Positions 585 through 64,000 of a stretch of DNA of 64,000 bases are shown in pieces. The stretch's first letter is position 1, and the number at the start of each line of letters is the position of its first letter. The notes below the pieces were generated by a model. That model saw nothing but the letters and a program-made list of their open reading frames with translations. It made no database searches and had not been told where the DNA came from. The stretch spans positions 177,637 through 241,636 of the forward strand of contig JAFPWG010000027.1 in NCBI GenBank assembly GCA_017395045.1, written 5' to 3'. The stretch comes from Bacteroidales bacterium. GTDB taxonomy: Bacteria; Bacteroidota; Bacteroidia; Bacteroidales; UBA932. The translations under genes and the position numbers were made by a program.

Positions 585-590
585 AAAAAA

Positions 591-942: not shown

Positions 943-995
943 GGTTGCAAAGGTACGAAAAAATGTCTAAATTTGGCTGATTTTTCAGCGAACCC

Positions 996-1751: not shown

Positions 1752-1832
1752 CATATCGGGGTATCGGGCGGCCGCCCGGTTGAGAACATACCCGTCGAAC
1801 CTGATGCGGTTCATACCGCCGGAGGAAAGTAT
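1752..1832 (+). promoter_or_regulatory. TPP (THI-box) riboswitch
   Basis: GGGGUAUC-[CGGGCGGCCGCCCGG hairpin]-UUGAGA-ACAU-ACCC-GUC-GAACCUGAU-GCGG-UUCAUA-CCGC-CGGAGGAAA follows the THI-box consensus (CUGAGA, ACCC, GAACCUGAU, AGGGAA). Putative P1 is CAUAU (1752-1756) with AUAUG (1831-1835), which includes the start codon. Confidence 0.8.
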
Positions 1833-4025: not shown

Positions 4026-4059
4026 AGAAATTTATTAAATAAACTTTTGTTCGAAAAAT

Positions 4060-4090
4060 TTTGGAGATAAAGAAAGTTTGCGTACCTTTG
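4060..4090 (+). promoter_or_regulatory. Bacteroidetes-type promoter (TTTG-N19-TAccTTTG)
   Basis: TTTG at 4060-4063, 19-nt spacer, TACCTTTG at 4083-4090. AT-rich context in an otherwise GC-rich window. No protein gene follows on this strand. Confidence 0.6.
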
Positions 4091-4096
4091 CTCTTG

Positions 4097-4229
4097 AAGA
4101 AAGGGAGATGTAAAATCCTCTTTTGGAAAGATACGCTTTTTCTAACCAGCACAATTAACCTTCTTCTGAGTAAGAATACACTACTAACTAACCGGATTAA
4201 AGCTCGCAGGGATGCGAGCTTTAATTTTT
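4097..4229 (+). ncRNA. candidate small RNA, family not recognised
   Basis: About 130 nt between the promoter above and a perfect 12-bp terminator hairpin. Low GC, no credible ORF. Internal long-range pairing CUCUUGAAGAAAGG with CCUUCUUCUGAG. 5' end inferred only. Confidence 0.45.
4197..4229 (+). terminator. intrinsic terminator
   Basis: TTAAAGCTCGCA-GGGA-TGCGAGCTTTAA (12-bp perfect stem) followed by TTTTT. It abuts the trmD stop codon (4230-4232) on the other strand. Confidence 0.8.
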
Positions 4230-4904
4230 CTAATCCAACAGGCCCGGACGGCGTTCCCGGGTACGGGCGAGCGCCTGCTCGTCCTGCCAGGCACGGATCA
4301 GCTTGGGATTGCCGGAAAGAAGGATGTCGGGAACCTTCCAGCCGTTGAATTCGGCGGGACGGGTATATACGGGAGGGGAGACCAGCCCGTCCTGGAAACT
4401 GTCGGACAGCGCGGACGTCTCGTCGGTGAGGACGCCCGGGATGAGGCGGATGATGCTGTCGGCCAGCAGGGCGGCAGGGATCTCGCCGCCGCTTACGACG
4501 AAGTCTCCCACGGAGATCTCGCGCGTAACCAGATGCTCGCGGATCCGCTCGTCGATGCCCTTGTAATGGCCGCACAGGATGATGATGTTCTCCTTGAGGG
4601 ACAGTTCGTTGGCGATGCCCTGGTCCAGGATTTCTCCGTCGGGGGCCATATAGATGACTTCATCGTAATCCCGTTCGGCCTTCAGTTCCTCGATCATCCG
4701 GAAAACGGGCTCCACCATCATCACCATGCCGGCGTCTCCGCCGTAGCAGTAATCGTCGACGGTCAGGCGCGGACCCAGTCCGTACTTCCGGAGGTTGTGG
4801 ACATGGATTTCCACCAGGCCTTTCTTGACGGCCCGGCCGGGGATGGAGTGGCTCAGCGGACTCTCGAGGAGTTCCGGTACGACGGTGAGGATGTCGATGC
4901 GCAT
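4230..4904 (-). CDS. trmD: tRNA (guanine37-N1)-methyltransferase
   Basis: [13 protein letters not shown]..., [41 protein letters not shown] are hallmark TrmD blocks. Confidence 0.95.
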
Positions 4905-4991
4905 GGTGTTTCCTTTGGTTCTGCAAATTTAAGTGTTTATTGCGGATTTTTTGCTATATTTGCAATCTATATGTTAAACTATTGAACACCA

Positions 4992-13107: not shown

Positions 13108-13587
13108 ATGAAAACTGCACTTGGAAAGGGATGGAAATGGATCCTGGGCCTTTTAATGGGCCTTCTGGGATTTACCGGATGTGGAAAACTTGGCATCTTC
13201 AGGGCGGAGTACGGATGCCCCAATGCCGACTTCAAACTGGTCGGTGAGGTAAAGGATGCGAAGGGCAAGGGAATCGAAGGGATTCGCGTCGTGTTCACGC
13301 CAAACCCTGAAGTTCCGCAAGAGCAACAGGAATGGGAGAGCGACACTCTCTATTCCGACGCCCGGGGTCATTTCGAGAAAGAACGCCTGAAATACAATTG
13401 GCCTGACAGGGCAGAGAAGGCCACCGTCAAGTTCGAAGATGTCGATGGCAGCGCCCACGGTTCGTTCCAGACGAAGATTCTCAAAGGTTCAGAATTGACC
13501 GTCGAGCAGACAAAGAAAGGCGACAAGAATTGGTACTCCGGTGAATACACCATTCAGGCCGATGCCGTGTTGGAAGAAGACGACTGA
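13108..13587 (+). CDS. radical-SAM-associated putative lipoprotein
   Basis: Lipobox LLMGLLGFTGC. The mature part starts GKLGIFRAEYGCPNADFKLVGEVKDAKGKGIEGIRVVF (CarboxypepD_reg-like beta-sandwich start). Stop overlaps the rSAM start (TGATG). Confidence 0.7.
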   Translation: MKTALGKGWKWILGLLMGLLGFTGCGKLGIFRAEYGCPNADFKLVGEVKDAKGKGIEGIRVVFTPNPEVPQEQQEWESDTLYSDARGHFEKERLKYNWPDRAEKATVKFEDVDGSAHGSFQTKILKGSELTVEQTKKGDKNWYSGEYTIQADAVLEEDD

Positions 13588-14657
13588 TGAAAGAAAGACT
13601 TTCGCTCAGGCGCCGTATCGCGCTGGATATCACGAAGAAGCTGCAGGATGATGTGATCGCATCACATCCGCTCCGGCAGCTTTTTTGGGAGTGCACCCTG
13701 CGCTGCAACCACCACTGCCGCCACTGCGGCAGTGACTGCAAGCAGACGGCCTCGGTGCCCGATATGCCCCTGGCGGATTTCGCCAAGGTTCTGGACAGCG
13801 TGCGTGCCGCGACGGACCCGCACAAGGTCATGATCAACGTCACCGGCGGCGAGCCGCTGATGCGTCCCGACCTGGAAGCCTGCGGCCGGATGATGTATGA
13901 AAAGGAGTTCCCTTGGGGCATGGTCACGAACGGCTGGGGCCTCACGCCGGAGCGCTATCGGCGCCTCCTGCAGAGCGGTCTCCGCGCGATGACCATCAGC
14001 CTGGACGGCCTGGAGGCGGACCACGACTGGATGCGCGGAGTCCCCGGCTCCTTCAAGCGCGCCTCCGCCGCTATCAAGATGGTTGTAGACTCGGGTGAAA
14101 TCGCATTCGATGTCGTCACCTGTGTGAACCGGCGCAATTTCCCGCACCTGAATGAACTGAAGGAATACCTCATCGGCCTGGGCCTCAAGGAATGGCGTTT
14201 GTTTACGGTTTTCCCGGTCGGACGCGCCGCGCAGGACCCTGAACTGCAGCTTACCGGCGAGGAACTCCGCGGCCTGATGGAATTTATCAAGGCTACCCGG
14301 AAAGAGGGCCGTATCCGGGCGGAATTCGCCTGTGAAGGCTTCCTGGGCAACTACGAAGGCGATGTCCGCGACCATTTCTACATGTGCCAGGCCGGTGTCA
14401 ATGTGGGCTCCGTCCTCGCCGACGGCTCCATCTCGGCCTGCGCCAGCATCCGTGCGGACTACCATCAGGGCAATATCTACGAGGACGACTTCATGGAAGT
14501 CTGGAACACCCGATTCCAGCCCTACCGCGACCGCTCCTGGATGTACAAGGACGACTGCGCCGCCTGCCGCTTCTGGAAGTATTGCCGAGGCAACGGAATG
14601 CACCTTCGGGATGAAAACGGCAAGCTGATCCAATGCCTGTTGAACAAGATGAAATGA
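13587..14657 (+). CDS. radical SAM/SPASM-domain protein
   Basis: CNHHCRHC (CX3CX2C), GGEPLMRPD, C-terminal Cys-rich auxiliary-cluster region (CQAG...SACASI...CAACRFWKYC). Confidence 0.85.
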   Translation: MKERLSLRRRIALDITKKLQDDVIASHPLRQLFWECTLRCNHHCRHCGSDCKQTASVPDMPLADFAKVLDSVRAATDPHKVMINVTGGEPLMRPDLEACGRMMYEKEFPWGMVTNGWGLTPERYRRLLQSGLRAMTISLDGLEADHDWMRGVPGSFKRASAAIKMVVDSGEIAFDVVTCVNRRNFPHLNELKEYLIGLGLKEWRLFTVFPVGRAAQDPELQLTGEELRGLMEFIKATRKEGRIRAEFACEGFLGNYEGDVRDHFYMCQAGVNVGSVLADGSISACASIRADYHQGNIYEDDFMEVWNTRFQPYRDRSWMYKDDCAACRFWKYCRGNGMHLRDENGKLIQCLLNKMK

Positions 14658-40593: not shown

Positions 40594-42068
40594 TCCTGAT
40601 GGCAGTTGAGTTTCCGGACCGGTTCGCAGGTGAGGCCGATGCCCAGCTTGTTGAAGGTCTTGCGGTCCACTTCGCTCAGCATCACGGTCGAATGCACCTG
40701 TGATCCCGCCAGTTTGGGGAGCTGCTCGATGGCAAGCTTGCAGTTCTCGTCGATCAGGCTCATCATGGAAATCGCAATCAGGACCTCGTCCGTATGCAGG
40801 CGGGGGTTGCGTCCGTGCAGATAGTTCACCTTGGTCTTCTGGATGGGGGCGATCATCGTCTGCGGGATGAGCTTGACGTTGTGGGCGATGCCGGCGATAT
40901 GCTTCAAGGCATTCAGCAGCAGGGCGGCGCAGGGACCGAGCAGGGGAGAGGTCTCGGCCGTGAGGATGGTCCCGTCTTCCAATTCGATGGCGGCTGTGGC
41001 CACATGGGAATGCTCCAGGCGGTCTTTTGCCGCAACGGTGCACAGGCGGTCGGCGGTGGAGATGTTTGCCCGTTTCATCAGAAGGGCGATCTTGTTCACT
41101 TCGCTCTCCGTGGCTTTTCCGTCGGCGAAATTGCACAGGGCCGTGTAGTAGCGGCGGATGATTTCCTGCAGGGAAGCCTTCCGGCACACGTCGTCGTCAC
41201 AAATGCAGTTCCCGACCATGTTCACGCCCATGTCGGTGGGGGACTTGTAGGGGGATTCCCCGTAGATATCGTTGAAGAGGGCATTCATCACCGGGAAGAT
41301 TTCCACGTCGCGGTTGTAGTTGACCGCCGTCTTTCCGTAGGCATCCAGGTGGAAGGGGTCGATCATGTTCACGTCCTCCAGGTCGGCCGTGGCGGCTTCA
41401 TAGGCCAGGTTTACGGGATGTGTAAGAGGGAGGTTCCAGATAGGGAACGTCTCGAATTTCGCGTAACCGGCCTTGACGCCGCGGCGGTTCTCCTGATACA
41501 GCTGGCTCAGGCAGACAGCCATCTTTCCGCTGCCGGGACCGGGGGCCGTCACGACGACAAGCGGCTTGGTGGTCTCCACGTAGTCGTTCTTGCCGAAACC
41601 CTCTTCAGAGTCAATCAGCGCGACATTGTGGGGATATCCTTCGATCGTATGGTGGTAGTAAACCTTGATGCCCATCGCTTCCAGGCGCTTCCGGTACGCG
41701 TCGGCACTGGACTGGCCATTATAGTGCGTGATCACGACGCTGTTTACGCTGAGGCCCCTCTCGATAAACTCGTCCCGCAGCCGGAGTACATCCACGTCGT
41801 AGGTGATGCCCAGGTCGCTCCGGACCTTGTTCTTCTCGATATCCACGGCACTGATGACGATGACGATTTCCGCATCGTCCTTCATCTGCATGAGCATCTT
41901 CAGCTTGCTGTCCGGCTCGAAGCCCGGCAGGACGCGGCTGGCATGGTAGTCGTCGAACAGCTTGCCGCCGAATTCCATGTAAAGCTTGTCGCCGAAAGTG
42001 GCGATGCGCTGCTTGATGTGCTCCGATTGGATGGTGAGATACTTCTCGTTGTCGAACCCGTATTGCAT
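40590..42068 (-). CDS. DUF1846 (UPF0371) family protein
   Basis: MQYGFDNEKYLTIQSEHIKQRI...FGGKLFDDYHASRVLPGFEPD is characteristic. TAACTTTG -7 box at 42094-42101 (minus). Confidence 0.8.
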   Translation of the reverse strand: MQYGFDNEKYLTIQSEHIKQRIATFGDKLYMEFGGKLFDDYHASRVLPGFEPDSKLKMLMQMKDDAEIVIVISAVDIEKNKVRSDLGITYDVDVLRLRDEFIERGLSVNSVVITHYNGQSSADAYRKRLEAMGIKVYYHHTIEGYPHNVALIDSEEGFGKNDYVETTKPLVVVTAPGPGSGKMAVCLSQLYQENRRGVKAGYAKFETFPIWNLPLTHPVNLAYEAATADLEDVNMIDPFHLDAYGKTAVNYNRDVEIFPVMNALFNDIYGESPYKSPTDMGVNMVGNCICDDDVCRKASLQEIIRRYYTALCNFADGKATESEVNKIALLMKRANISTADRLCTVAAKDRLEHSHVATAAIELEDGTILTAETSPLLGPCAALLLNALKHIAGIAHNVKLIPQTMIAPIQKTKVNYLHGRNPRLHTDEVLIAISMMSLIDENCKLAIEQLPKLAGSQVHSTVMLSEVDRKTFNKLGIGLTCEPVRKLNCHQD

Positions 42069-42218
42069 AATGGACTTTCTTGAATACGGGTCACAAAGTT
42101 AGCAAATCCCGCTGAAAACCGCAATCCCGAATCGAAAAAAGACGCAAATTTGCTAAAATGCCCCAAAATGCGTAAATTAGCACCACTAAACACAACCTGA
42201 CTGATAACCGCCTCTTTT

Positions 42219-42893
42219 ATGGATGAAGTGAGAGTCATCGAAATCAAGAAAAGCGTTTTCGAAGACAATGACCGCGACGCGGCCGCTTTACGGAAAGAAT
42301 TGAAAGACAAAGGGGTATTCCTCCTGAACCTGATGTCCGCTCCCGGCAGCGGCAAAACTACCACCCTCATCGGAACCCTTCAGAGAATCAAGGACAAGGT
42401 CCGCACGGCCGTGATGGAGGCCGATATCGACTCGGATGTCGATGCGGTGAAGATCCTGAAGGCTACCGGCGTGCCCACCATCCAGCTCCACACGGGCGGG
42501 ATGTGCCACCTGGATGCGGAAATGACGCGCCAGGGGCTGGACAACGTGGCCCTCTCCGACGTGGACCTCGTCATCCTGGAGAACGTCGGGAACCTCGTCT
42601 GTCCGGCCGAATTCGACACCGGAGCCGTTCGCAACGCGATGATCCTGTCCGTTCCGGAAGGGGATGACAAACCGCTGAAATACCCGCTCATGTTTTCCGT
42701 CTGTGACCTGGTACTGGTGAACAAGGTCGATGTGATGCCTTATTTCGACTTCGACCTGGACAAGTGCCGGAAGTATGTCCGCATGCGTAATCCCAAGGCC
42801 CGCGTCATCCCCATCTGCGCGAAGACGGGCGAGGGGGTGGACGAGTTCGCCGACTGGCTGCTCGCCGAGGTAAAGAATTGGAAACTAAGCTAA
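42219..42893 (+). CDS. hypB: hydrogenase/urease-type nickel incorporation GTPase HypB
   Basis: P-loop APGSGKTT, GGMCHLDA, ENVGNLVCPAEFD, LVNKVD. No N-terminal CxxCGC or His-rich tract. Confidence 0.9.
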   Translation: MDEVRVIEIKKSVFEDNDRDAAALRKELKDKGVFLLNLMSAPGSGKTTTLIGTLQRIKDKVRTAVMEADIDSDVDAVKILKATGVPTIQLHTGGMCHLDAEMTRQGLDNVALSDVDLVILENVGNLVCPAEFDTGAVRNAMILSVPEGDDKPLKYPLMFSVCDLVLVNKVDVMPYFDFDLDKCRKYVRMRNPKARVIPICAKTGEGVDEFADWLLAEVKNWKLS

Positions 42894-42905
42894 TAACCTA
42901 TACAT

Positions 42906-45731
42906 ATGCCTGAGATGTCCAAGAAATTTGTCCCCAAGCACATGGGGGACAAGAATCCTAATCCCAAGCTCCTGAAATTCGTCCGACACGTCACGGACCG
43001 CATCCCCGGAAAGATCAAGATGGACACGAACGCCCCCGAGTACTGGGGTCTTGCGTGCATCTTCGAGGACGAGATGGATCCCGTGACCCGCGATGCATCG
43101 CTGGACCTCCTGCTGGATATGCTGCCCGGGAATTTCTTCCGGGTACGTGAACACCACACCTATGAGAAACTGCATCGGATGAATGCAGAGAAGCACTATA
43201 CGCCGGATGACAAGTCCTTCGACGAGCTGCTGGACCTGATGGCCCGCCTGGGCGTCCTGGAATATGACTACGGTGACAAATACACCAAGGATGGTCCCGT
43301 GCCCGGGACCACGTACAACCGGGAAGACCGGGTCTACTGGGTGCCGATGTTCGTGCCCGGCAGCGCCGAATACACCAACATGAACGAGGCGCTCATGAAA
43401 AAGCACCCGGAGCTGGGCATGTTCTTCGAGCGCATGACATTCCTCCCGCTGGAGAAGATCACCCCCATGGTGCCGATGGGCGGATCCGGCATCGGCATGC
43501 ACGTGATTCCCGTGGAGAAAGCCATCTCCATGGAGAACCAATCCATTGACATCGAGCATATTTCCTACTGGCTCAAGCGCTACGAGGGTCACCTTGCTGT
43601 AGGTATCTGTTCCTGCCGCATCGGCCGCAAGGGACTGGACGAAGGCTGCGCCGACGACTACCGCGACTGGTGCATCGGCGTGGGCGACATGGCGGAATAC
43701 CTGGCGGAGACGGGCCGCGGCCACTACATCACCTACGATGAGTGCATGGCCATCCTGAAGAAGGCCGAGGACCACGGTTTCGTGCACCAGATCACGAACA
43801 TCGACGGAGAGGGGAAGATTTTCGCCATCTGCAACTGCAACGTGAAGATCTGCAACGCTCTCCGCACGTCGCAGCTGTTCAATACGCCCAACATGTCCCG
43901 GAGCGCCTACGTGGCGGAAGTGGACCCGAAGAACTGCGTCGCCTGCGGCCGCTGCGTGGAGTATTGCCCCGCCGGCGCGGTGAAGCTGGGCCAGAAGCTT
44001 TGCACGAAGCACGGACCGCAGACCTATCCCAAACAGGAATTGCCGGACGCCGCCAAATGGGGCGAGCACAAGTGGACGGAGGACTATCGGGACAAGAACC
44101 GGATCAACTGCTACGAGACCGGTACGGCTCCCTGCAAGACCGCCTGCCCGGCACACATTGCCGTCCAGGGCTACCTGAAGAAGGCCGCTGAAGGCAAATA
44201 TACGGAGGCACTGGAACTCATCAAGCGGGAGAATCCGTTCCCCGCCGTGTGCGGACGCGTGTGCAACCGCCGTTGCGAGGATGCCTGCACGCGCGGCACC
44301 ATCGACCAGCCCATCGCCATCGACGCGGTGAAGAAGTTCATTGCTGAACAGGACCTTCATGCGGAAACCCGCTTCGTCCCGGAGGTGAACATCTGCTCCA
44401 ACGTCCTGGAACGCTGGGAGGAGAAGATCGCCATCATCGGCGGCGGTCCTGCCGGCCTGAGCTGCGCCTATTACCTGGCCACCATGGGTTACAAGCCGAC
44501 CGTGTTCGAGAAGAACGAGGAACCGGGCGGCATGCTCCGCTACGGAATCCCTTCCTATAAATTGGAGAAGGACGTCATCGCCGCGGAAATCGACGTCATG
44601 AAGGAGATCGGCGTGGAGATCCGCACCGGCGTGGAAGTTGGCAAGGACGTTACCATCGCCGGTTTGCGGGAAGAAGGCTACAAGGGCTTCTATGTGGCCA
44701 TCGGCTGCCAGGGCGGCAAACTGCCCGGCGTTCCGGGGGAGACGCTCCCCGGCACTTCCACGGCCATCGACTTCCTCCATGCCGCAAATACCGGCAAGGT
44801 GAAGGTGTCCGGCAAGGTCGTAGTCGTCGGTGGCGGCAATGTCGCGATCGACGCGGCCCGCGTGGCAAAGCGCAGCGGTGCATCTGAGGTAACTATGCTC
44901 TCCCTCGAAACCGAAGACATCATGCCCGCGTCCCTGGAGGAACGCACCGAAGCCCGTGAGGACGGTGTGGTCATCAACCCGGGCTGGGGCCCGAAGGAAG
45001 TCCTCGGTAGCGGAAAGGTAACAGGAATCGTGTTCAAGCGTTGTACTTCCGTTTTCGACGAGAATCACCGCTTTGCTCCGAAATACGATGAGAATGAACT
45101 CATTACGCTTGAGGCCGACCAGGTCGTCTTCGCCATCGGCCAGACCGTGGTCCTGAAAGACCTGCTCAAGGATACCAAGGTGGAATTCTTCCGCGGCGTG
45201 TATCCCGTGGCCGACAAGCTTACGTACCAGACGGCCGAGCCCGACATCTTCGTGGGCGGTGACGTATTCACCGGACCCAAGTTCGCGATCGACGCCATCG
45301 CCGCCGGCAAGGAGGCTGCCGAATCCCTGCATCGTTTCGTGCAGCACGGACATATGACCATCGGCCGCAACCGGCGCGATTTCATCGAACTGGACAAGGG
45401 AGACATCTTCGTCGAGTCCTACGACAACGGTTCGCGCCAGGATCCCGGCGTGAAACCCGTGAAGGATGCTTTCCGGGAATATCACGGCACCCTGACCGAG
45501 GAGCAGGTCCGCAAGGAAACGGCCCGCTGCCTCAGCTGCGGCGCTTCGGTCGTCGATGAAAACAAGTGCATCGGATGCGGAGTCTGTACGACCAAGTGCG
45601 GTTTCGACGCCATCCATCTGCACCGCGTCCATCCCGAAGCGTCCGTCATGCGGACTTCCGAGGACAAGTTCTCCGGAATCCTCCCTTATATGCTCAAGCG
45701 CACGGGCAAGATCCTCTTCAAGAAGAGATAA
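42906..45731 (+). CDS. 941-aa multidomain Fe-S flavoprotein: unknown Cys-rich N-domain, ferredoxin motif, GltD-like NAD(P)H/FAD module, C-terminal ferredoxin
   Basis: aa 235-316 CSC...C...C...C...CNC....C; aa 344-354 CVACGRCVEYCP; aa 402-461 GltD-type cluster region (CGRVCNRRCEDAC); IAIIGGGPAGL and VVVVGGGNVAID Rossmann folds; aa 875-898 CLSCG...CIGCGVCTTKC. Confidence 0.8.
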   Translation: MPEMSKKFVPKHMGDKNPNPKLLKFVRHVTDRIPGKIKMDTNAPEYWGLACIFEDEMDPVTRDASLDLLLDMLPGNFFRVREHHTYEKLHRMNAEKHYTPDDKSFDELLDLMARLGVLEYDYGDKYTKDGPVPGTTYNREDRVYWVPMFVPGSAEYTNMNEALMKKHPELGMFFERMTFLPLEKITPMVPMGGSGIGMHVIPVEKAISMENQSIDIEHISYWLKRYEGHLAVGICSCRIGRKGLDEGCADDYRDWCIGVGDMAEYLAETGRGHYITYDECMAILKKAEDHGFVHQITNIDGEGKIFAICNCNVKICNALRTSQLFNTPNMSRSAYVAEVDPKNCVACGRCVEYCPAGAVKLGQKLCTKHGPQTYPKQELPDAAKWGEHKWTEDYRDKNRINCYETGTAPCKTACPAHIAVQGYLKKAAEGKYTEALELIKRENPFPAVCGRVCNRRCEDACTRGTIDQPIAIDAVKKFIAEQDLHAETRFVPEVNICSNVLERWEEKIAIIGGGPAGLSCAYYLATMGYKPTVFEKNEEPGGMLRYGIPSYKLEKDVIAAEIDVMKEIGVEIRTGVEVGKDVTIAGLREEGYKGFYVAIGCQGGKLPGVPGETLPGTSTAIDFLHAANTGKVKVSGKVVVVGGGNVAIDAARVAKRSGASEVTMLSLETEDIMPASLEERTEAREDGVVINPGWGPKEVLGSGKVTGIVFKRCTSVFDENHRFAPKYDENELITLEADQVVFAIGQTVVLKDLLKDTKVEFFRGVYPVADKLTYQTAEPDIFVGGDVFTGPKFAIDAIAAGKEAAESLHRFVQHGHMTIGRNRRDFIELDKGDIFVESYDNGSRQDPGVKPVKDAFREYHGTLTEEQVRKETARCLSCGASVVDENKCIGCGVCTTKCGFDAIHLHRVHPEASVMRTSEDKFSGILPYMLKRTGKILFKKR

Positions 45732-46075
45732 TGCACGAGCTGGGCATCGTCTTTTACATTATCCGGGACGTCAAGAAGGCGGCTCTCGAGAATGCCGTGG
45801 CGCACGTTTCCGCCGTAGTGATGAACATCGGCGAAGTGTCTACGGTGATTCCCGAGTACCTGACCGACTGCTGGCGCTGGGCTGCGGACAAGGAGCCGCT
45901 GCTGAAAGGCTGCGAGCTCAAGGTCAATACCATTCCGGCGGTTACCCGGTGCGGAGACTGCGGAAACGAGTATGAAACGGTCCGATATGGAAAGACGTGT
46001 CCCCGCTGCAACAGTGAAAATACCTGGCTCCTGCAAGGGAACGAGGTGGAAATCAAGGAAATAGAAGTAACTTAA
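45731..46075 (+). CDS. hypA: hydrogenase maturation nickel metallochaperone HypA
   Basis: N-terminal MHE nickel site; zinc site CGDCG...CPRCNS. Start overlaps the upstream stop (TAATG). The track ORF 45566-46075 N-extension is rejected. Confidence 0.9.
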   Translation: MHELGIVFYIIRDVKKAALENAVAHVSAVVMNIGEVSTVIPEYLTDCWRWAADKEPLLKGCELKVNTIPAVTRCGDCGNEYETVRYGKTCPRCNSENTWLLQGNEVEIKEIEVT

Positions 46076-46079
46076 AGAT

Positions 46080-46421
46080 ATGGCTTGTTTTATTGTTCCC
46101 CTGGTACAGGCAGTCGCTACGACCGTGTACCGCAAGCGCCACGCGGCGGCCATCGCCGCGCCGGACGCCCCCGCCCTCCGTCACCGTCTTCCCGACCTGG
46201 AGAAGATGCTCTGGGGCGGCACCCTGATGCTCATCGTGGACCACGTCATCAATGGCGAGCTTACCTGGCGTTTCCCGTTCTTCACCGCCTTGGACCAGGC
46301 GGGCGGAGGTATGGTGATGCTCCGGGAGATGCTTACCGTGGGCGTTCCCATGTCCCTGGTCCTCACCCTTGCGTGGGTGGTCTGGGCCTATGTCAGAGAC
46401 CGCAAGTCCGCAACTGTTTAA
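46080..46421 (+). CDS. small integral membrane protein, unknown function
   Basis: 113 aa with about 3 hydrophobic segments. Starts 4 nt after hypA. Confidence 0.55.
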   Translation: MACFIVPLVQAVATTVYRKRHAAAIAAPDAPALRHRLPDLEKMLWGGTLMLIVDHVINGELTWRFPFFTALDQAGGGMVMLREMLTVGVPMSLVLTLAWVVWAYVRDRKSATV

Positions 46422-46446
46422 CACATCATAACTAAAACCTTCAAGT

Positions 46447-47550
46447 ATGTTTTTCCAAGTGTATGGCGAACATGCATTCGCCCAGTGGGGGATGCTTCTG
46501 GTCGTCCTCATCGGCCTGATCCTCTTCAATGAATTCGCCCGTCGCACCAAGTTCGGCGGTGTCATCACGTTCCTGGCCATTCCGCTGGCCCTGACGGCCT
46601 ATTTCCTTGCCATCTGGATTGGTGTAAGAAACGGTGCGCAGTGGGCTCTTGAGAACCAGACCCACGTGTACATGCAGGGCTGGTTCCACTACGCCAAGCT
46701 CTATGCCGCCACCGCCGGGTGCATCGGCTTCATGATGATCAAGTACAAGTGGGGCATTGGTGCAAAGCACTGGTTCAAGCCGTTCCCGTTCATCATCGTG
46801 GGCATCAACATCCTGATTGCCTGCGTGTCCGACTTCGAGTCCGCCGTGATGGGCTGGAACAAGTGGTGGCTCACCTCCGAAGGCGTCTGGCAGTATGGCG
46901 GCTGGCACAATGTGATGAACGGTGTCGCCGGCCTGCTCAACATCTTCTGTATGACCGCCTGGTGGAACGTGTATCCCTCCAAGGACAAGAAGGACATGAT
47001 CTGGGCCGACATGACTTGGGTGTACATCCTTGTCTATGACATCTGGAACTTCGCCTACACGTACAATTGCCTGCCTACGCACAGCTGGTACTGCGGTATC
47101 GCCCTGCTCCTCGCCCCGACCATCGCTGCCCTGCTGTGGAACCGCGGCGGCTGGATCCAGAACCGCGCCAACACCCTCGCGATCTGGTGCATGTTCGCCC
47201 AGGTGTTCCCGCTCTTCCAGGAGACCTTCAAGAACGGCCAGCAGTGGTTCCCTTGGGCCACCCTTCCCGTCCTCTATCCGGAAGGCGTCGCCACCATCGA
47301 GAAGCTCTATGCGGCCGGCGGCCAGGCGGCTGTCGACGGTGTCGTGGGCACGACTGTCGATCCTTCCGTGGTCGCCGCCAATCCCACGATGATGGTCGTC
47401 ATCAGCGCCCTCGCCCTCCTCGTCAATGCGGTCGCCCTCGGCTACATCTTCTGCCAGGCCAAGAAGCGCCACATCAACCCGTACAAGGAAGATGTCTTCG
47501 TGGACCAGAAGTACTACAAGGATGCCATGGCCCGTGCCGATGTGAACTAA
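46447..47550 (+). CDS. polytopic, Trp-rich integral membrane protein, unknown function
   Basis: 367 aa with about 9-10 hydrophobic segments and many W/Y/N. No transporter signature recognised (no NiCoT HX4DH). Confidence 0.65.
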   Translation: MFFQVYGEHAFAQWGMLLVVLIGLILFNEFARRTKFGGVITFLAIPLALTAYFLAIWIGVRNGAQWALENQTHVYMQGWFHYAKLYAATAGCIGFMMIKYKWGIGAKHWFKPFPFIIVGINILIACVSDFESAVMGWNKWWLTSEGVWQYGGWHNVMNGVAGLLNIFCMTAWWNVYPSKDKKDMIWADMTWVYILVYDIWNFAYTYNCLPTHSWYCGIALLLAPTIAALLWNRGGWIQNRANTLAIWCMFAQVFPLFQETFKNGQQWFPWATLPVLYPEGVATIEKLYAAGGQAAVDGVVGTTVDPSVVAANPTMMVVISALALLVNAVALGYIFCQAKKRHINPYKEDVFVDQKYYKDAMARADVN

Positions 47551-47577
47551 TCTGGCAGTCAAACCATTATGGGATGG

Positions 47578-47603
47578 ACGGAGGTCTTCGGGCCTCCGTT
47601 TTC
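47578..47603 (+). terminator. intrinsic terminator ending the hyp-containing operon
   Basis: ACGGAGGTC-TTCG-GGCCTCCGT (9-bp stem, one G-U pair) followed by TTTT. Confidence 0.7.
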
Positions 47604-47665
47604 CGTTCCGCATTTCGTATTGTGGCGGAAAAACGCTATATTCGCATTCTTAACAGACGGATACG

Positions 47666-49495
47666 ATGACCAAACCTGTGAACCCGCCACTGCTGGACCA
47701 CCAAACGATGCAGGATGCCCTGGGAATCAAGGGCCTCTCCGGCAAGGTCCTGACCCGGCTGCTTTTCGGCGTGCTGGGCATGGGCAGGGCGAACCGTCTC
47801 TATGCCCGGAAGCCCCGTCCTGACGGCCCGGCATTCTCCTCTGAAATCCTGGAGGACCTGGGGGTTACCTACGACATTCCCGAAGAACAGTTGAGCCATA
47901 TTCCCGAAGAAGGCGGATTCATCACGGTGTCCAACCATCATTTCGGTGCTGTGGACGGGATGATCCTGAATGCGGTCATCGGCTCCCGCAGGCCAGATTA
48001 CAAGATCCTGACCACCTTCTTCCTCGCCCTGATCACCAATCTGAAGGACTGGTTCATCCCGGTCGATAATTTCGCTTCCGGCGGGACCAGGAGCATTTCC
48101 GGCATCCGTTCCGCCCTGGGTCATATCGGCAGCGGGGGAGCACTGGGACTGTTCCCAGCGGGGGAAGTCGCGACCTGGCAGAAAAAGGGAGAACGTACCG
48201 CCATCAGCGGCAAACGCGTCGTGGAAGACAAGCCCTGGACCGAAAACATGATGAAGCTGATCCGGAAATCCGGCCTTCCGGTGATTCCGGTCTATTTCGA
48301 CGGAGGCAACTCCAAGACCTTCCATGTCCTGGGACAGGTCCATCCCATCCTGCGCACGCTCCGGCTTGTCCGCGAGATGATGGGTTCGAAGGGGAAGCAT
48401 GTCCAGGTACGGATCGGCCAGCCCATTCCTGCCAACCAGATTGCCGCGTTTGACGTGGATACCCTGGGAAAATATCTTCGCAATCGCTGCTATGCACTTG
48501 AGGCCCAGTGCCTTCCCGACTTCGATACACTTCCCGTATCCGGCGAGATACAGGAAATCATCCCGCCTGTCGATCCGGAAACCATCCGTGCCCAGGTAGC
48601 GGGGCTGGATCACCGGATCCTCTTCGAGACCGGAGATTACCGGGCCTATCTCGTAGCCGCGGCGGATGCCCCTGACCTGATGCGGGAACTGTACCGGCTC
48701 CGCGAAGTGACTTTCCGCGCCGTAGGCGAGGGAACCGGCAAGGCCATGGACACGGATCCTTACGATGAGTATTACCGTCACCTGATCCTATGGAGCATTC
48801 CCAACGGGGACATCGTCGGTGCATATCGCGTTGGATACGGCCCGGACATCATCGCCTCTCACGGAGGGGTTTCCGGTTTCTATACATCCACCTTGGTGAA
48901 CTTCGGACCGAATGCAGAGCCCATTTTTGCCCATTCTCTTGAACTGGGACGATCGTTCGTCCAGGAGAAGTACCAGCGTGAGGTCTTGCCCTTGAAGCTG
49001 CTTCTGGCAGGCCTTTGCGTCGCTACGACGAAAGATCCCCAGGTGGACCGCTGCGTCGGTCTGGTGACCATGAGCGCTTCGCTGCCGGATTTCTACAAGA
49101 GCCTTACCGTCCATTTCCTGCAGCGGGACTTCCTGATGGAGGAGGCCGACAGGTTTGCAACACCTACGACCCCATTCCAGCCCGGTTTCCTGCGTGTGGA
49201 TCCGGACCAGTTGATCCAGGTTCCCGAGCGTGACATCGATGCATTCGACCGGATTCTCGGCGCCGTTTCCGACGGAAAATACAGGCTTCCTGTCCTGTTC
49301 CGCAAATACTTCAGCTGCGGAGCCCGCGTCTCCTGCGTCAATGTGGATCCGGCCTTCTCCGACTGCTTGGACGCCATGATCGTCCTCCGGCTCGCCGACT
49401 TCCCGCCGGCCAGCATCAAATCCTTCATCCGTTCCCTTCCCGACGGGATCCAGAACGAGGTCCTCCGTCATTTCTACGGTACGGAAAACGTTTGA
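47666..49495 (+). CDS. bifunctional acyltransferase, OlsF-like (PlsC-type O-acyltransferase plus OlsB/GNAT-type N-acyltransferase) for aminolipid synthesis
   Basis: N-domain NHHFGAVDG (HX4D) and FPAGEV. C-domain LYRLREVTFRAVGEGTGKAMDTDPYDEYYRHLILW...VGAYRV, as in ornithine/glycine-lipid N-acyltransferases. Confidence 0.7.
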   Translation: MTKPVNPPLLDHQTMQDALGIKGLSGKVLTRLLFGVLGMGRANRLYARKPRPDGPAFSSEILEDLGVTYDIPEEQLSHIPEEGGFITVSNHHFGAVDGMILNAVIGSRRPDYKILTTFFLALITNLKDWFIPVDNFASGGTRSISGIRSALGHIGSGGALGLFPAGEVATWQKKGERTAISGKRVVEDKPWTENMMKLIRKSGLPVIPVYFDGGNSKTFHVLGQVHPILRTLRLVREMMGSKGKHVQVRIGQPIPANQIAAFDVDTLGKYLRNRCYALEAQCLPDFDTLPVSGEIQEIIPPVDPETIRAQVAGLDHRILFETGDYRAYLVAAADAPDLMRELYRLREVTFRAVGEGTGKAMDTDPYDEYYRHLILWSIPNGDIVGAYRVGYGPDIIASHGGVSGFYTSTLVNFGPNAEPIFAHSLELGRSFVQEKYQREVLPLKLLLAGLCVATTKDPQVDRCVGLVTMSASLPDFYKSLTVHFLQRDFLMEEADRFATPTTPFQPGFLRVDPDQLIQVPERDIDAFDRILGAVSDGKYRLPVLFRKYFSCGARVSCVNVDPAFSDCLDAMIVLRLADFPPASIKSFIRSLPDGIQNEVLRHFYGTENV

Positions 49496-49501
49496 TCCGC
49501 G

Positions 49502-50164
49502 ATGGACAGTCCGACTTGGGTATATCTCCTGGGATTGACCGGGATGGCGATTTACGGCCTCAGGATCCTGATCCAGTGGTACCTGTCGGAAAAGTCGCAC
49601 GTCGTTGAATCACCGGGCATCTACTGGGTGCTCAGCAGCATCGGCGCCGTGATCCTGTACATCTATGGATGGCTTCGGAAAGACTTCTCCATCATCTTCG
49701 GGGAAAGCGTCGGTTACTACATCTATATGTGGAACATCAGCATCATGGGCCTGTACAAGAAGGTGCCGCGCATCGTCATCATCGTCCAGGCCCTGTTTCC
49801 GCTGGTCATCCTGGGACTGATCGTGAAGGATATTCCCACGTTTACCCAGACTTTCCTGCGGAACAAGGAAGTTCCGCCGATGTTGCTGCTGTACGGCGTT
49901 CTGGGCCAGTTTACCTATGAAATCAGGTCGGTATACCAGCTTGTGTACAGCTACAAGCGCAAAAAATCCATCCTGCCCCTGGGTCACTGGGTGCTGGCGG
50001 TCATCGGTTCCGCGATGATCATCAGCTATGGACTCATCCGGCACGACTGGGTGCTGGCGATCGGCCAGTTCTCCATTTTCTTCTCCATCCGCAACCTGAT
50101 GATTTCCATCCAGTCGGGCAAGAGGAGCGTTGAAAAGGAGGAAATTAACGAACCACCTGTGTAA
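49502..50164 (+). CDS. lipid-A-disaccharide synthase N-terminal (LAB_N) domain membrane protein
   Basis: Two LAB_N-like repeats (GLTGMAIYGLRILIQWYLSEK...; GQFTYEIRSVYQLVYSYKRKKS). Confidence 0.7.
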   Translation: MDSPTWVYLLGLTGMAIYGLRILIQWYLSEKSHVVESPGIYWVLSSIGAVILYIYGWLRKDFSIIFGESVGYYIYMWNISIMGLYKKVPRIVIIVQALFPLVILGLIVKDIPTFTQTFLRNKEVPPMLLLYGVLGQFTYEIRSVYQLVYSYKRKKSILPLGHWVLAVIGSAMIISYGLIRHDWVLAIGQFSIFFSIRNLMISIQSGKRSVEKEEINEPPV

Positions 50165-61370: not shown

Positions 61371-61640
61371 GAGGCGTTCTCCGGTCCCGGGAGGCGGATG
61401 GCCGGCATCGTGAGGTCGCCGCTCCGTTCCGCATTTCCTACGAAACTGTGAACGGTTCCGGTTTCCTGCAGTACATTCAGGATGCGCTGCTCGCCGAACT
61501 GGTCGTGGTTTTCAGTCTCCGCCGGTCATGACGGGGCAAGAACCCGAAGAGCGTTGCGGACATCATGGAATCATTGCGCCCTTCCGAGGAGGAATTGACG
61601 ATGGGCTGAATATACGAATCCTTTAAGGAATACTTCCCGC

Positions 61641-61871
61641 TCACAGGATTTTCATCGCAATGTGGGCGCAAGCCTCCGCGTCGGCGAGGGCATGGTGATG
61701 ATTCATGAGATCGAAGCCGCATGCCGCCGCAACTGTCTGCAACCGATGATCCGGCAACCTGCCGCCAAAGAGTCTGCGGGATGCACGCAAGGTATCAAAG
61801 AAGACATAGTCCGGATAATCCATCCGATAGACCTTGAAAACCGCTTTGAGACAACCCTCGTCAAATGTACG
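61641..61871 (-). pseudogene. 3' half of a DEDDh (DnaQ/epsilon-like) 3'-5' exonuclease gene
   Basis: FDEGCLKAVF...NHHHALADAEACAHIAMKIL (Exo III H-x4-D). There is no Exo I/II part or proper start; the track start is a TTG. Homology stops at 61865-61871. Confidence 0.75.
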
Positions 61872-62013
61872 AGTCAACTTTTTTCAGGGAAAGACATCGT
61901 TCCGATTGAAAGTGCCCCCCACGTCCTGATGATGGGATCTATAATAGAAAGCAGTCTGGAGCTGTTTTTCATCTCAGCAACCTGCCTTTTTTCATCAGAT
62001 GAAAAGAGAAAGA

Positions 62014-62060
62014 TCAGGGGGTCAATTAGAAGGAGAATGAGGGGGTCAATTTAGAGGGGA
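62014..62060 (+). repeat. tandem direct repeat GGGGGTCAATT(T)AGA, 24-nt period
   Basis: tcaGGGGGTCAATTAGAAGGAGA and tgaGGGGGTCAATTTAGAGGGGA, at 62017 and 62041. Confidence 0.7.
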
Positions 62061-62157
62061 TTTTCCATCATGTTCCTGAAAATGATTCAGAGAATCTCGG
62101 CTTTGTTGTTTTCAAGTCCGTTTTAGTACCGACTACATGGAAGTTAATACCGGAGAG

Positions 62158-62358
62158 TTTGAACCACATTTGAACCATGTACTGCGCAACTCATTGATAA
62201 TCAATGTATTTAACATTCTGCATCGGGAAATAACCGGAAAACGAATAGGTAAGAACTTCTATCATTATGTAGAAATGTTTACGAATCAATTTAATAGAGA
62301 AAAGACCGATTCCAGTTATTACTCTGTGATTTCCTTTTTTTGAACCATACGTGGTTCA
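62158..62358 (+). repeat. dispersed TTTGAACCA motifs (3 direct, 1 inverted)
   Basis: TTTGAACCA at 62158-62166, 62169-62177 (11-nt period) and 62339-62347. Inverted TGGTTCA at 62352-62358 forms the TGAACCA-TACG-TGGTTCA palindrome. Confidence 0.6.
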
Positions 62359-62973
62359 TGGTCTCGATAGTGTTATGCCATAGTACGTACCGTGACATTA
62401 TAATAACTTGTCCCCCATCACACGGGAGTAATGGCGTCGCAGAGGTTCTGAGAATTGTTCCGGATAATAATTGTAATAAGTTCGTACGAACGATGAAATC
62501 TCGCCAGAAAGAATCTGTATTCTCCATTTGCCGGGCCGTACTTATCAGAGCCTTTCTTGAAACAGCCTGTCCTCTCCCCTCTATTCTGTATCTACGGAAT
62601 ACGTACGTCCGTTGATCTTGATTGTCTTGATGGCCTGACCGTTAGCGGTGATTTTCCCGTCCTCGCCTTTTTTTCTGCTCCGGAGATCCTTCCTTGAGCA
62701 CGGATATATTATCAATACCAAAAGGAGAAGCCGTCCCCGACGGGTTTGAATTCCAGGTTCTCGGCTTCGGCACTTCGAATCCGTACACTGTCACGTCTTG
62801 CGACCCAAAGCCGCAGCAGCGCATCCTGCACCACATCCTCCTGGTTTTTAACACCCCAATAATGCTTTCGCCGAAAAATGAGTAAATTTGAGCCATGGAA
62901 TACCTGTCAAAACATCGATACGGCGAGATTGCGGAATCCTGCGCCTTAGAATCGAAAGCATCACCATGGGGTT

Positions 62974-63241
62974 ATGAAGGATTTTGCAGCCATTGATTTC
63001 GAGACGGCGAACGAGTGCCCCAGCAGTGTGTGCAGCGTGGGGATCGTCGTCGTGCGGGACGGTGTGATCGCAGACCGGTTCTACAGTTTGATCCATCCCG
63101 AGCCGGAGTATTACCAGTGGTTTTGCCGGCAGGTGCATGGATTAAGCCCTGAGGATACGGAAGATGCCCCCGTATTCCCTTTTGTCTGGGAGCGGATCGA
63201 ACCGCTGATTGAAGGACTTCCTCTGGTCGCCCATAACCGTA
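62974..63241 (+). pseudogene. 5' half of the same DEDDh exonuclease gene
   Basis: MKDFAAIDFETAN (Exo I) ... LPLVAHN (Exo II start). The frame then runs into unrelated sequence (RKARVND...). Confidence 0.75.
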
Positions 63242-63256
63242 AAGCACGAGTTAACG

Positions 63257-63652
63257 ATGTTTATTTATCAGACGAAGAAGCGCGAACTGTACTATGAGCG
63301 GGTCATAGCGCTGTATCAACAGACCGGTTATGGGAAGAAACGGCTAGGAAAGCTATTTCCCGAGATTGGAGAGAAGACTATTTCCAGATGGATTGCTAAC
63401 TTTGTATCCGAGAACCCGCAAGTAGCATCCATGAGACGAGCGAAACCAGCACGAACAGCCCCTGTTCAAGCGCCGGAAGTTCAATCTGAAAAGCTTCCGA
63501 CGGATGTCCAGGAACTCCAGGCCGAACTGAAGAGACTGCGGGCGCAGCTGACTAAGGCGGAGATCAAGGCCGAAGCATACGACGAGCTCATCAATGTCGC
63601 CGAGGCCAAGTTCAACATCCAGATCAGAAAAAAAGCTGGCGCCAAGCAGTAG
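63257..63652 (+). CDS. IS3-family transposase OrfA (HTH plus leucine zipper)
   Basis: KRLGKLFPEIGEKTISRWIANF HTH; LQAELKRLRAQLTKAEIKAEA coiled coil. Start at the internal ATG of ORF 63209-63652. Confidence 0.8.
   Translation: MFIYQTKKRELYYERVIALYQQTGYGKKRLGKLFPEIGEKTISRWIANFVSENPQVASMRRAKPARTAPVQAPEVQSEKLPTDVQELQAELKRLRAQLTKAEIKAEAYDELINVAEAKFNIQIRKKAGAKQ
63628..63634 (+). promoter_or_regulatory. programmed -1 ribosomal frameshift heptamer A AAA AAA
   Basis: Seven A residues in the orfA zero frame (aga aaa aaa gct), 16 nt before the orfA stop. The -1 frame continues open as OrfB. Confidence 0.65.
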
Positions 63653-64000
63653 ACAACCTGCGCGCAAGGAACCCCAAACGATATGAGGTTCAGCATCTTT
63701 GCGAGCTGTTTGGCGTGACGAAGCAGGCATATTACAAACAAGATGAATCAAGGGTCCTGGCCCAAGCGGCAAGGGATGCCTTTGCGTTGGAATACATCAA
63801 ACACGTCCGGACCAAGGATCCCGGGATAGGAGGGGTGAAGCTCTGGCATATGTACAGGCGAGACTTCAAGGGTAATGACCCCCTCGGGCGTGACAGGTTT
63901 GTGGATATCATCAACGAGCACAACCTGAAAGTCCGCATGAGGGTGCGGAAGCCGCGGACGACGGACTCGTCACATGGACTTCCCACATACCCCAACCTTG
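63634..64000 (+). CDS. IS3-family transposase OrfB, N-terminal part (3' end outside window)
   Basis: My own translation of the -1 frame: SWRQAVDNLRARNPKRYEVQHLCELFGVTKQAYYKQ...GGVKLWHMYRRDF...RMRVRKPRTTDSSHGLPTYPNL. Open to the window end. Confidence 0.75.

Follow-up and report, generated by a model that had tools for sequence, protein, structure and literature searches.

An IsrA-like iron-sulfur flavoprotein encoded with HypA and HypB in a conserved gene cassette of rumen Bacteroidales

A five-gene operon with hypB and hypA

We analysed a 64,000-nucleotide stretch (hereafter, the window) of contig JAFPWG010000027.1, positions 177,637 to 241,636 of the forward strand, in the genome assembly GCA_017395045.1 of a rumen Bacteroidales bacterium (lineage UBA932). 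The subject of this work is an operon in which the genes for HypB and HypA flank the gene for a large oxidoreductase that resembles IsrA, a 901-aa (amino acid) oxidoreductase and putative isoprene reductase. The isrA gene lies in an operon that is induced by isoprene in Acetobacterium wieringae ISORED-2 and also encodes a ferredoxin, one HypB and two HypA proteins (Kronen et al. 2023, PMC10134865). In coordinates of the window, the operon spans positions 42219-47550 and consists of five co-directional genes:

42219-42893, + strand: hypB, 224 aa (TIGR00073, PF02492)
42906-45731, + strand: predicted IsrA-like (clade 9) Fe-S flavoprotein oxidoreductase, 941 aa (assigned from the Pfam/NCBIfam architecture, alignments and the published description of IsrA)
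45731-46075, + strand: hypA, 114 aa (PF01155)
46080-46421, + strand: small membrane protein without a family, 113 aa
46447-47550, + strand: DUF5692 polytopic membrane protein, 367 aa (PF18948)

The spacings between these genes are, in order, 12, -1 (a 1-nt TAATG overlap), 4 and 25 nt, and upstream of hypB, 150 nt (42069-42218) lie between it and a divergently oriented DUF1846 gene. The same layout had been described in an earlier annotation made without database searches (the sequence-only reading), and the list of open reading frames (ORFs) agrees with it. That annotation also reported the absence from the window of hypCDEF and of genes for [NiFe]-hydrogenase, urease, carbon monoxide dehydrogenase and LarA-like proteins. 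A Pfam search of the ~63 ORFs of the window detected none of these, and no known nickel transporter; the remaining genes are mainly housekeeping ones (YidC, GAPDH, LpxB, SurE, rubrerythrin, peptidases and similar).

The chaperones HypB and HypA

Profile searches bear out the identification of both chaperones in the sequence-only reading. HypB scores 239.5 bits against the TIGR00073 equivalog (cut-off 121.2), compared with 44.4 and 20.4 against the models of other G3E branches, UreG and MeaB (NCBIfam). Its translation contains the P-loop G43SGKTT48 (residues 43-48) and the G-domain metal site C96, H97 and C128. Residues 1-40 contain neither Cys nor His, so that, as noted previously, this HypB has no N-terminal CxxCGC or His-rich high-affinity site; against the Escherichia coli-type model NF007775 (PRK10463), it scores 237.8 (cut-off 385), with the match beginning at model position 75. 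HypA matches PF01155 (E 8.5e-32, 109.9 bits, cut-off 28.9) and retains the M1-H2-E3 nickel site and the Zn site C74xxC77...C90xxC93. Because it falls below the TIGR00100 equivalog cut-off (72.4 vs 88.1) despite the PF01155 match and the motifs, it is best described as a predicted divergent HypA.

HypB is 71-75% identical to the copies adjoining Firmicutes homologues of the oxidoreductase, and HypA is 53-58% identical to four full-length copies adjoining such homologues and 48% identical to a truncated fifth one. HypA and HypB are thus about as conserved as the oxidoreductase, which implies that the chaperones and the enzyme travel together.

In Helicobacter pylori, HypA and HypB serve both [NiFe]-hydrogenase and urease, a precedent for a non-hydrogenase client. 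The proteins of the operon resemble their H. pylori counterparts in that HypB has the G-domain Cys-His...Cys site and no CxxCGC, and HypA combines the MHE nickel site with Zn(Cys)4. Unlike in H. pylori, the presumed client is an Fe-S flavoprotein, and no UreEFGH-like relay, hypCDEF or hydrogenase is linked to it.

The oxidoreductase

The 941-aa protein joins a family-specific N-terminal domain to a widespread redox module, and the following parts can be delineated:

42906-43925, + strand: N-terminal, family-specific domain (aa 1-340), outside Pfam and NCBIfam; presumed catalytic and metal-receiving
43608-43853, + strand: six-cysteine (Cys6) site C235-x-C237, C256, C309-x-C311, C316 (alignments)
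43935-45344, + strand: electron-input module, with the [4Fe-4S] motif C344-C354, Fer4_20 (aa 401-485), and FAD and NAD(P)H Rossmann domains (aa 507-813)
45519-45623, + strand: C-terminal ferredoxin-type Cys motifs (aa 872-906), with PF00037 at aa 882-903; IsrA counterpart at aa 848-877 (PMC10134865)

Pfam matches begin at aa 328 with a ferredoxin motif and continue with Fer4_20 (401-485), Pyr_redox_2 (507-801) and Fer4 (PF00037, 882-903). Residues 1-330 match no Pfam or NCBIfam family, and in a sequence search against the PDB nothing aligns before aa 346. The segment aa 346-881 aligns to 9bov_A (2.8e-89), 8oh5_C, 9n5u_A (NfnA), 5vj7_A and 4ylf_B, with E-values from 1e-48 to 1e-89, and an alignment of 17 sequences shows GxGxxG-type motifs in both Rossmann domains (G512GGPAG and a second one, GGGNVAID). 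This segment is therefore similar to the NAD(P)H-FAD-2x[4Fe-4S] modules of NfnB, GltD and dihydropyrimidine dehydrogenase (9n5u, 5vj7, 5jca, 4ylf, 1gt8; fused in 9bov and 8oh5_C). The modules matched include some that are fused to molybdopterin enzymes. In these proteins, the electrons go to a partner subunit or to a molybdopterin or other catalytic domain, whereas the module of the 941-aa protein is joined to a domain of 340 residues without a known relative.

We aligned the N-terminal domain in three sets, namely the same 17 sequences, 68 closer sequences, and 15 full-length or long homologues with identity down to 32%. The cysteines C235, C237, C256, C309, C311 and C316 are invariant in all three alignments, as are R238, E288, H294, N310 and R320, and a distance of 74 residues separates the two CxC motifs, identical to that in IsrA. 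Full-length homologues consist of 883-945 aa and are 33-55% identical over the first 340 residues. Many homologues in databases are shorter than 700 aa, which could have meant that the family is truly shorter; we rejected this possibility because these are contig-end fragments or frameshifted calls and full-length representatives exist. Judging from sequence searches, the domain appears to represent a small, isolated family, with 877 matches at E<=1e-3 and 334 at 1e-10, many of them fragments, among 1.84 billion cluster representatives. An exact-match look-up found no record of the 941-aa sequence. A Foldseek search of the PDB with the AlphaFold2 (AF2) model of aa 1-400 yielded a best E of 0.4 and template modelling (TM) scores <=0.19; the hits, none of them significant, were local winged-helix-like pieces only, a result that speaks neither for nor against a similarity to acetyl-CoA synthase (ACS), hybrid-cluster or double-cubane proteins.

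Clade 9 comprises the full-length IsrA homologues from Firmicutes, Bacteroidetes and other phyla (PMC10134865). The 941-aa protein is almost certainly a member of the IsrA-like family, as follows from the shared domain order, the Cys6 site that is invariant down to 32% identity, and the identical 74-residue spacing of the CxC motifs. Its placement in clade 9 together with IsrA (VUZ27132.1) is probable, given the N-terminal domain, which is reported to be restricted to full-length homologues, and the 33-55% identity to the homologues of 883-945 aa.

Conservation of the cassette in rumen Bacteroidales

A search of species-representative genomes with the N-terminal 400 residues of the oxidoreductase as the query returned 423 loci, and the counts given here refer to the best 80 of these. 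Nearly all of the 80 come from metagenome-assembled genomes (MAGs) of rumen Bacteroidales, with cattle, sheep, goat, deer and yak as hosts. The other proteins of the window were located by tblastn, and only those loci whose contig extends far enough enter the presence counts. Gene order and strand are as in the window throughout the related loci. HypB was found in 76 of 77, HypA in 70 of 72, the 113-aa protein in 55 of 66 and DUF5692 in 54 of 60. The order hypB-X-hypA followed by two membrane protein genes, to which the sequence-only reading had drawn attention, is thus conserved rather than sporadic, and the 941-aa protein and the membrane proteins do co-occur with hypA and hypB. In at least eight loci, the 113-aa gene is absent and hypA abuts DUF5692; the 113-aa protein is an optional member of the cassette.

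Nucleotide homology to the window begins at a median position of 42219, which is the hypB start codon, and ends at a median position of 47543, with many loci reaching 47549-47552; the DUF5692 stop codon is at 47550. The genes that flank the cassette in the window were found in only 4 of the 80 loci. Within 6 kb, no flanking gene family whatsoever, be it for a regulator, hydrogenase or substrate-pathway enzyme, is present in more than 6 of the 80. Given these homology boundaries at the ends of the cassette and the unrelated flanks, the inherited or moved unit consists of exactly these four or five genes. Because the arrangement recurs in 80 species-level genomes with unrelated flanks, it is far beyond chance.

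Some loci stand out. In two roe-deer Paludibacteraceae MAGs, hypB and the oxidoreductase gene are intact; in one of these (L011, 10001-21080), hypA lies ~8 kb further downstream, and in the other (L012, 10001-21200), hypA was not found within 11 kb. The 113-aa protein and DUF5692 were found in neither, a layout that points to rearrangement of the cassette or to an insertion. On a contig of 5 kb that was assigned to Candidatus Limiplasma (Firmicutes) by binning, there is a cassette (240-5015) with 82-86% protein identity to the Bacteroidales version; either the binning is wrong or the cassette was recently transferred across phyla.

Homologues beyond close relatives

Three Firmicutes-looking contigs (L081-L083), in which the N-terminal domain is 59-69% identical to that of the window protein, carry the arrangement HypB-oxidoreductase-HypA or oxidoreductase-HypA. 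Next to three distant full-length homologues (L088-L090, 33-45% identity), hypA is located 7-158 nt downstream of the oxidoreductase gene, so that hypA is adjacent or close to it in 6 of 6 non-Bacteroidales or distant contexts. DUF5692 is present in none of these six, and two of them, L081 and L089, encode a GntR regulator upstream. The Pfam-annotated neighbours in nine context loci (L081-L083 and L085-L090) include no hydrogenase, hypCDEF or urease. These results independently replicate the published neighbourhood statistics, in which HypA (0.73), HypB (0.56), DUF5692 (0.40) and TetR (0.21) are the recurrent neighbours among 988 IsrA homologues (PMC10134865).

In L081 (11300-17944 of a 756-kb contig), the IsrA-like gene and hypA are followed by genes for FAD oxidoreductases, two short-chain dehydrogenases and an MCRA fatty-acid hydratase (PF06100), a possible hint at unsaturated fatty-acid substrates. 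Oleate hydratase (MCRA) and short-chain dehydrogenase genes have also been reported near the homologues of A. woodii and A. fimetarium (PMC10134865).

Several of these homologues are encoded by interrupted or split genes. In L082 (8001-16228; GCA_009685425.1, Firmicutes-looking), the IsrA-like gene is apparently broken after ~674 codons by an insert encoding a serine recombinase and a RelB/YafQ toxin-antitoxin system, and the C-terminal ferredoxin part and hypA come after the insert. In L081 (8001-10924) and L083/L084 (8001-10816), gene calling divides the homologue near residues 650-680 into two ORFs that overlap. The L083/L084 split appears in two separately assembled records (ENA and Logan), possibly from the same sample. 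These two-ORF splits are most likely assembly frameshifts.

Membrane proteins

DUF5692 matches PF18948 (E 8e-128) and no other Pfam family, and its homologues number in the thousands. Invariant polar and Cys residues are located in its predicted helices (H81, K84, D129, E131, E145, H154, N155, N158 and H212; C92, C168, C216 and C248), and the motif N207-C-L-P-T-H-S-W-Y-C-G217 includes a C-x3-H-x3-C pattern. The AF2 model is confident, with a predicted local distance difference test (pLDDT) score of 88 and a predicted TM score of 0.86. A contig from Lachnospiraceae (L085) likewise has DUF5692 after hypA.

For the 113-aa protein, there is no match in Pfam or NCBIfam; its conserved residues are M1, C3 and F4 (M-x-C-F), P7, LE..MLWGG, D54-H55 and G59-E60.

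Two further loci bear on these proteins. In L087 (6542-9044), DUF5692 occurs without hyp genes, 74 nt from a divergent, stand-alone gene for a 461-aa GltD-like protein (Fer4_20 and Pyr_redox_2), a module that the 941-aa enzyme contains in its C-terminal part. In L090 (9665-11371), which encodes the homologue with 33% identity, a CDF gene (Cation_efflux and ZT_dimer) follows hypA, in the slot that is held by DUF5692 in the window.

Comparison with the isr operon

The presence of hypA and hypB next to IsrA has been linked to nickel. Isoprene raises the amounts of IsrA, HypA and HypB in A. wieringae ISORED-2 with log2 fold changes of 6-11, and the genome of this bacterium encodes no [NiFe]-hydrogenase or hypCDEF. 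IsrA was predicted to contain four canonical [4Fe-4S] clusters and a fifth, six-cysteine site with the CxC motifs C180/C182 and C254/C256, which was proposed to be the nickel-receiving site, at the end of the substrate tunnel (PMC10134865). IsrA was abundant also in isoprene-fed A. wieringae strain Y (Jin et al. 2022, PMC9765523), and in Pelotomaculum, isoprene induces hypA 373-fold and hypB 585-fold. Our literature search for links between HypAB and biohydrogenation or fatty-acid metabolism returned the isoprene papers only.

The sequence-only reading had treated the association of an oxidoreductase with hypA and hypB as new; it had, in fact, been published in 2023, including the link to DUF5692 and the lack of hydrogenase genes (PMC10134865). 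The window protein shares with IsrA the size of ~900 aa and the order of an unannotated N-terminal domain, ferredoxin motif, Fer4_20, FAD/NAD(P)H domains and C-terminal ferredoxin motif, as well as the six-cysteine site with its two CxC motifs at the same spacing. At the operon level, both systems combine hypA and hypB, a HypB of the type without an N-terminal metal site, and no hydrogenase genes nearby. Unlike the isr operon (isrA-hypA-hypB-ferredoxin-hypA), the order here is hypB-oxidoreductase-hypA-113-aa protein-DUF5692; there is one hypA instead of two and no ferredoxin paralogous to the IsrA N-terminal domain, and two membrane proteins are added, DUF5692 being absent from the isr operon. 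The N-terminal domain is ~55 residues longer than in IsrA, and the host is a rumen Bacteroidales rather than an acetogen. Compared with the clade 9 neighbourhoods (PMC10134865), the commonest neighbours HypA, HypB and DUF5692 are all present, with hypA and hypB within five genes, whereas no TetR or GntR regulator is encoded at the window locus. The Bacteroidales cassette itself, its sharp boundaries and the 113-aa membrane protein are not described in that work.

Proposed function and alternatives

We propose, at a probability of about 0.6, that an IsrA-type reductase and all it requires are encoded by these five genes as a single, self-contained cassette, with HypAB maturing its nickel site. 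The C-terminal two thirds of this cytoplasmic enzyme would, by homology to NfnB/GltD-type modules, carry electrons from NAD(P)H to FAD and on through a [4Fe-4S] chain to the N-terminal domain, where the six invariant cysteines, including the two CxC motifs, probably hold an unusual metal cluster. The HypB GTPase and HypA would act as dedicated chaperones that place nickel in or beside the Cys6 cluster. The enzyme might then reduce an unactivated or conjugated C=C bond of a hydrophobic compound; this compound would be isoprene in A. wieringae, and for the rumen enzyme, plant terpenoids or conjugated dienes are speculative candidates. DUF5692, usually together with the 113-aa protein, would be the membrane partner, most likely importing nickel for the chaperones.

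The elements of this scheme differ in strength. The identities of the parts, the family membership and the conserved linkage are near certain. Nickel insertion into the oxidoreductase by HypAB, which we infer from the conserved hypAB linkage and the published IsrA case, is probable, and reduction of a C=C bond is a tentative assignment, falling somewhat short of an even chance. Isoprene reduction is not implied for the window enzyme because Acetobacterium homologues at 47-49% identity do not reduce isoprene (PMC10134865). Between the two functions suggested in the sequence-only reading, the maturation of a new nickel-dependent redox enzyme is the better supported: hypA and hypB flank the oxidoreductase gene in nearly every relative, the adjacency of hypA persists at 33-45% identity, and the same hypothesis was put forward for IsrA in an organism devoid of [NiFe]-hydrogenase and hypCDEF (PMC10134865). 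A self-contained module for nickel handling or uptake is at best part of the story and may apply to the two membrane proteins.

These proteins most likely import nickel, a role to which we give an about even chance, the main alternative being the handling of a hydrophobic substrate. The idea arises because DUF5692 follows hypA, because a CDF transporter occupies that slot in L090, because His, Cys, Asp and Glu residues are invariant in the DUF5692 helices, and by analogy with permease genes found beside other nickel-enzyme accessory genes. As with the NiCoT/HoxN/NixA, HupE/UreJ and NikMNQO/LarMNQO genes, a polytopic membrane protein with conserved His, Cys and Asp in the helices is encoded beside nickel chaperones, and as in NikMN or CbiMN, it has a small membrane partner; both likenesses are analogies only.

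Several observations weigh against the proposed function. As regards the chaperones, hypB is not adjacent to the oxidoreductase gene in any of the three distant homologues (L088-L090), and HypB is not encoded beside 44% of the IsrA homologues (PMC10134865). The failure of the Acetobacterium homologues to reduce isoprene bears on the identity of the substrate (PMC10134865). The literature to mid-2026 yielded no metal analysis, activity assay or structure of any IsrA-family member, and the AF2 model of aa 1-400 is of moderate confidence (pLDDT 71). As regards the membrane proteins, neither DUF5692 nor the 113-aa protein matches a known nickel transporter family (NiCoT, HupE/UreJ, NikMN/CbiMN or NikABCDE), so that, unlike the permeases to which they are compared, they stand outside those families; the DUF5692 model has no fold match in the PDB (Foldseek, best E 0.38, TM <=0.27); and DUF5692 occurs outside the oxidoreductase/hyp context, alone in a mouse-gut Bacteroidales (L086) and also in L087. 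The nickel claim itself is drawn from the parts that HypA and HypB play in other systems, the absence of hydrogenase genes applies to the 64 kb searched, and Pelotomaculum, in which hypAB is isoprene-induced, carries [NiFe]-hydrogenases.

The last of these points would equally suit HypAB that serve, in the ordinary way, to mature a [NiFe]-hydrogenase or urease whose genes lie in another part of the genome, with the oxidoreductase as an electron-transfer partner or mere neighbour. HypB does exceed the equivalog threshold and, to our knowledge, the characterised clients of HypA and HypB are all hydrogenases or urease. We nevertheless regard this explanation as very unlikely, given that hydrogenase, hypCDEF and urease genes were found neither in the 64 kb nor among the Pfam-annotated neighbours in the nine context loci, that the flanks of the 80 related loci contain no recurrent gene family, that the hyp genes and the oxidoreductase gene are fixed together in a block whose boundaries coincide exactly with those of the cassette, and that HypA scores under the equivalog cut-off for hydrogenase HypA; the same linkage exists in A. 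wieringae ISORED-2, which has neither [NiFe]-hydrogenase nor hypCDEF. A different possibility is that HypAB are dedicated to the oxidoreductase but deliver Zn, Fe or Co, or help build an all-iron, double-cubane-like Cys6 cluster. The CobW/HypB/UreG-family GTPases, all of which are spanned by PF02492, include Zn and Co chaperones. The Cys6 site of IsrA, moreover, has been likened to P-cluster and double-cubane sites as well as to the A-cluster of ACS (PMC10134865). This alternative appears unlikely, as the window protein scores as HypB proper, far above UreG and MeaB, and both the C-H...C nickel site of HypB and the MHE N-terminus of HypA are retained.

The cassette could also serve mainly for nickel acquisition or homeostasis, DUF5692 and the small protein importing the metal and HypAB buffering it, with the oxidoreductase not a client at all. 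A membrane protein gene does follow hypA directly in the window and in L085, as the CDF transporter gene does in L090, and DUF5692 is found on its own elsewhere; yet the most constant pairing is that of the oxidoreductase with hypA, not of hypA with DUF5692, which is missing from L081-L083, L088-L090 and the isr operon, and it is hard to see what a redox enzyme of 941 aa with an invariant Cys6 site would do in nickel storage. We consider this scenario highly improbable.

Transcription signals and other features of the window

Two putative signals delimit the operon:

42149-42180, + strand: candidate Bacteroidetes-type promoter, TTTG (42149-42152), 20-nt spacer, TAAATTAG (42173-42180)
47577-47609, + strand: hairpin with a 10-bp stem and UUCG loop (47577-47600), then TTTTCCGTT, a likely intrinsic terminator

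Bacteroides promoters follow a -33/-7 consensus in which the -7 element is TAnnTTTG. The candidate in the gap upstream of hypB was recognised by eye against this consensus and is offered as a candidate only; nucleotide comparison shows no conservation of the surrounding intergenic DNA among related loci. A scan with sigma-70 promoter and terminator consensus sequences, which are uninformative for Bacteroidetes, gave counts not above those for shuffled sequence and detected no terminator-like sites on the + strand inside the operon. The terminator described in the sequence-only reading holds in part: the hairpin folds at -27.5 kcal/mol (z -3.67, with 0 of 200 shuffles equally stable), but only a short T-run (TTTTCCGTT) comes after it, and the site was not picked up in the consensus scan. 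An intrinsic terminator downstream of DUF5692 is nevertheless likely. An Rfam scan of 41800-47900 found no match to the NiCo or any other riboswitch at E<=1. A mobile-element origin of the cassette in the window was considered and rejected, as there is no integrase or transposase nearby and the GC content is uniform.

Directly 3' of the cassette (47666-50164), the window encodes a 609-aa fusion of Acyltransf_2 and GNAT-like Acetyltransf_5, followed by a membrane protein with LAB_N, the lipid A biosynthesis N-terminal domain. The two genes look like an amino-lipid synthesis pair; they adjoin the cassette in 4 of the 80 loci and are thus not conserved there. At 13108-14657, a 159-aa lipoprotein-like ORF without a family overlaps by one base the next gene, which encodes a radical SAM/SPASM protein, and the two could be a peptide-maturase pair. 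At the end of the window (61400-64000), the GC content drops from ~0.58 to 0.49, and there are short ORFs only, including an RNase_T-like exonuclease fragment and one with a weak helix-turn-helix match; this segment may be foreign or degraded DNA.

Implications

The locus is a member of a published, biochemically uncharacterised IsrA-type kind and brings no new principle beyond the 2023 paper. What is new is the Bacteroidales form of the cassette with its exact boundaries, its occurrence, amid unrelated flanks, in relatives from at least 80 species of the rumen, the 113-aa protein as a dispensable partner, and the adjacency of hypA persisting to 33% identity. In addition, judging from the predicted models, neither the presumed catalytic domain nor DUF5692 has a solved structural relative.

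A bolder interpretation is that the enzyme is a nickel-iron-sulfur reductase that saturates conjugated or unactivated C=C bonds of plant compounds (either conjugated dienes of polyunsaturated fatty acids or terpenoids, for example chains derived from phytol), a long-sought enzyme of ruminal biohydrogenation, and that DUF5692 and its partner are a new nickel permease family. The hints are the relatives in at least 80 rumen Bacteroidales species, the MCRA and short-chain dehydrogenase genes near the homologues of L081, A. woodii and A. fimetarium, and the His and Cys residues in the DUF5692 helices. We consider this interpretation doubtful.

The possibility of a new class of nickel enzymes with alkene-reducing chemistry is of interest, even if the window alone advances the question little. 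If HypAB indeed load nickel into the oxidoreductase, this would be such a class and the third type of HypA/HypB client, after hydrogenase and urease. Few enzymes are able to reduce unactivated alkenes, as is proposed for this family. The compact, sharply bounded Bacteroidales cassette is a good template for heterologous expression, and its two membrane proteins are candidates for a nickel supply route. Anaerobes of the gut and rumen commonly carry members of the family (423 loci from one query), and its substrate could bear on ruminal hydrogen sinks, biohydrogenation and methane mitigation.

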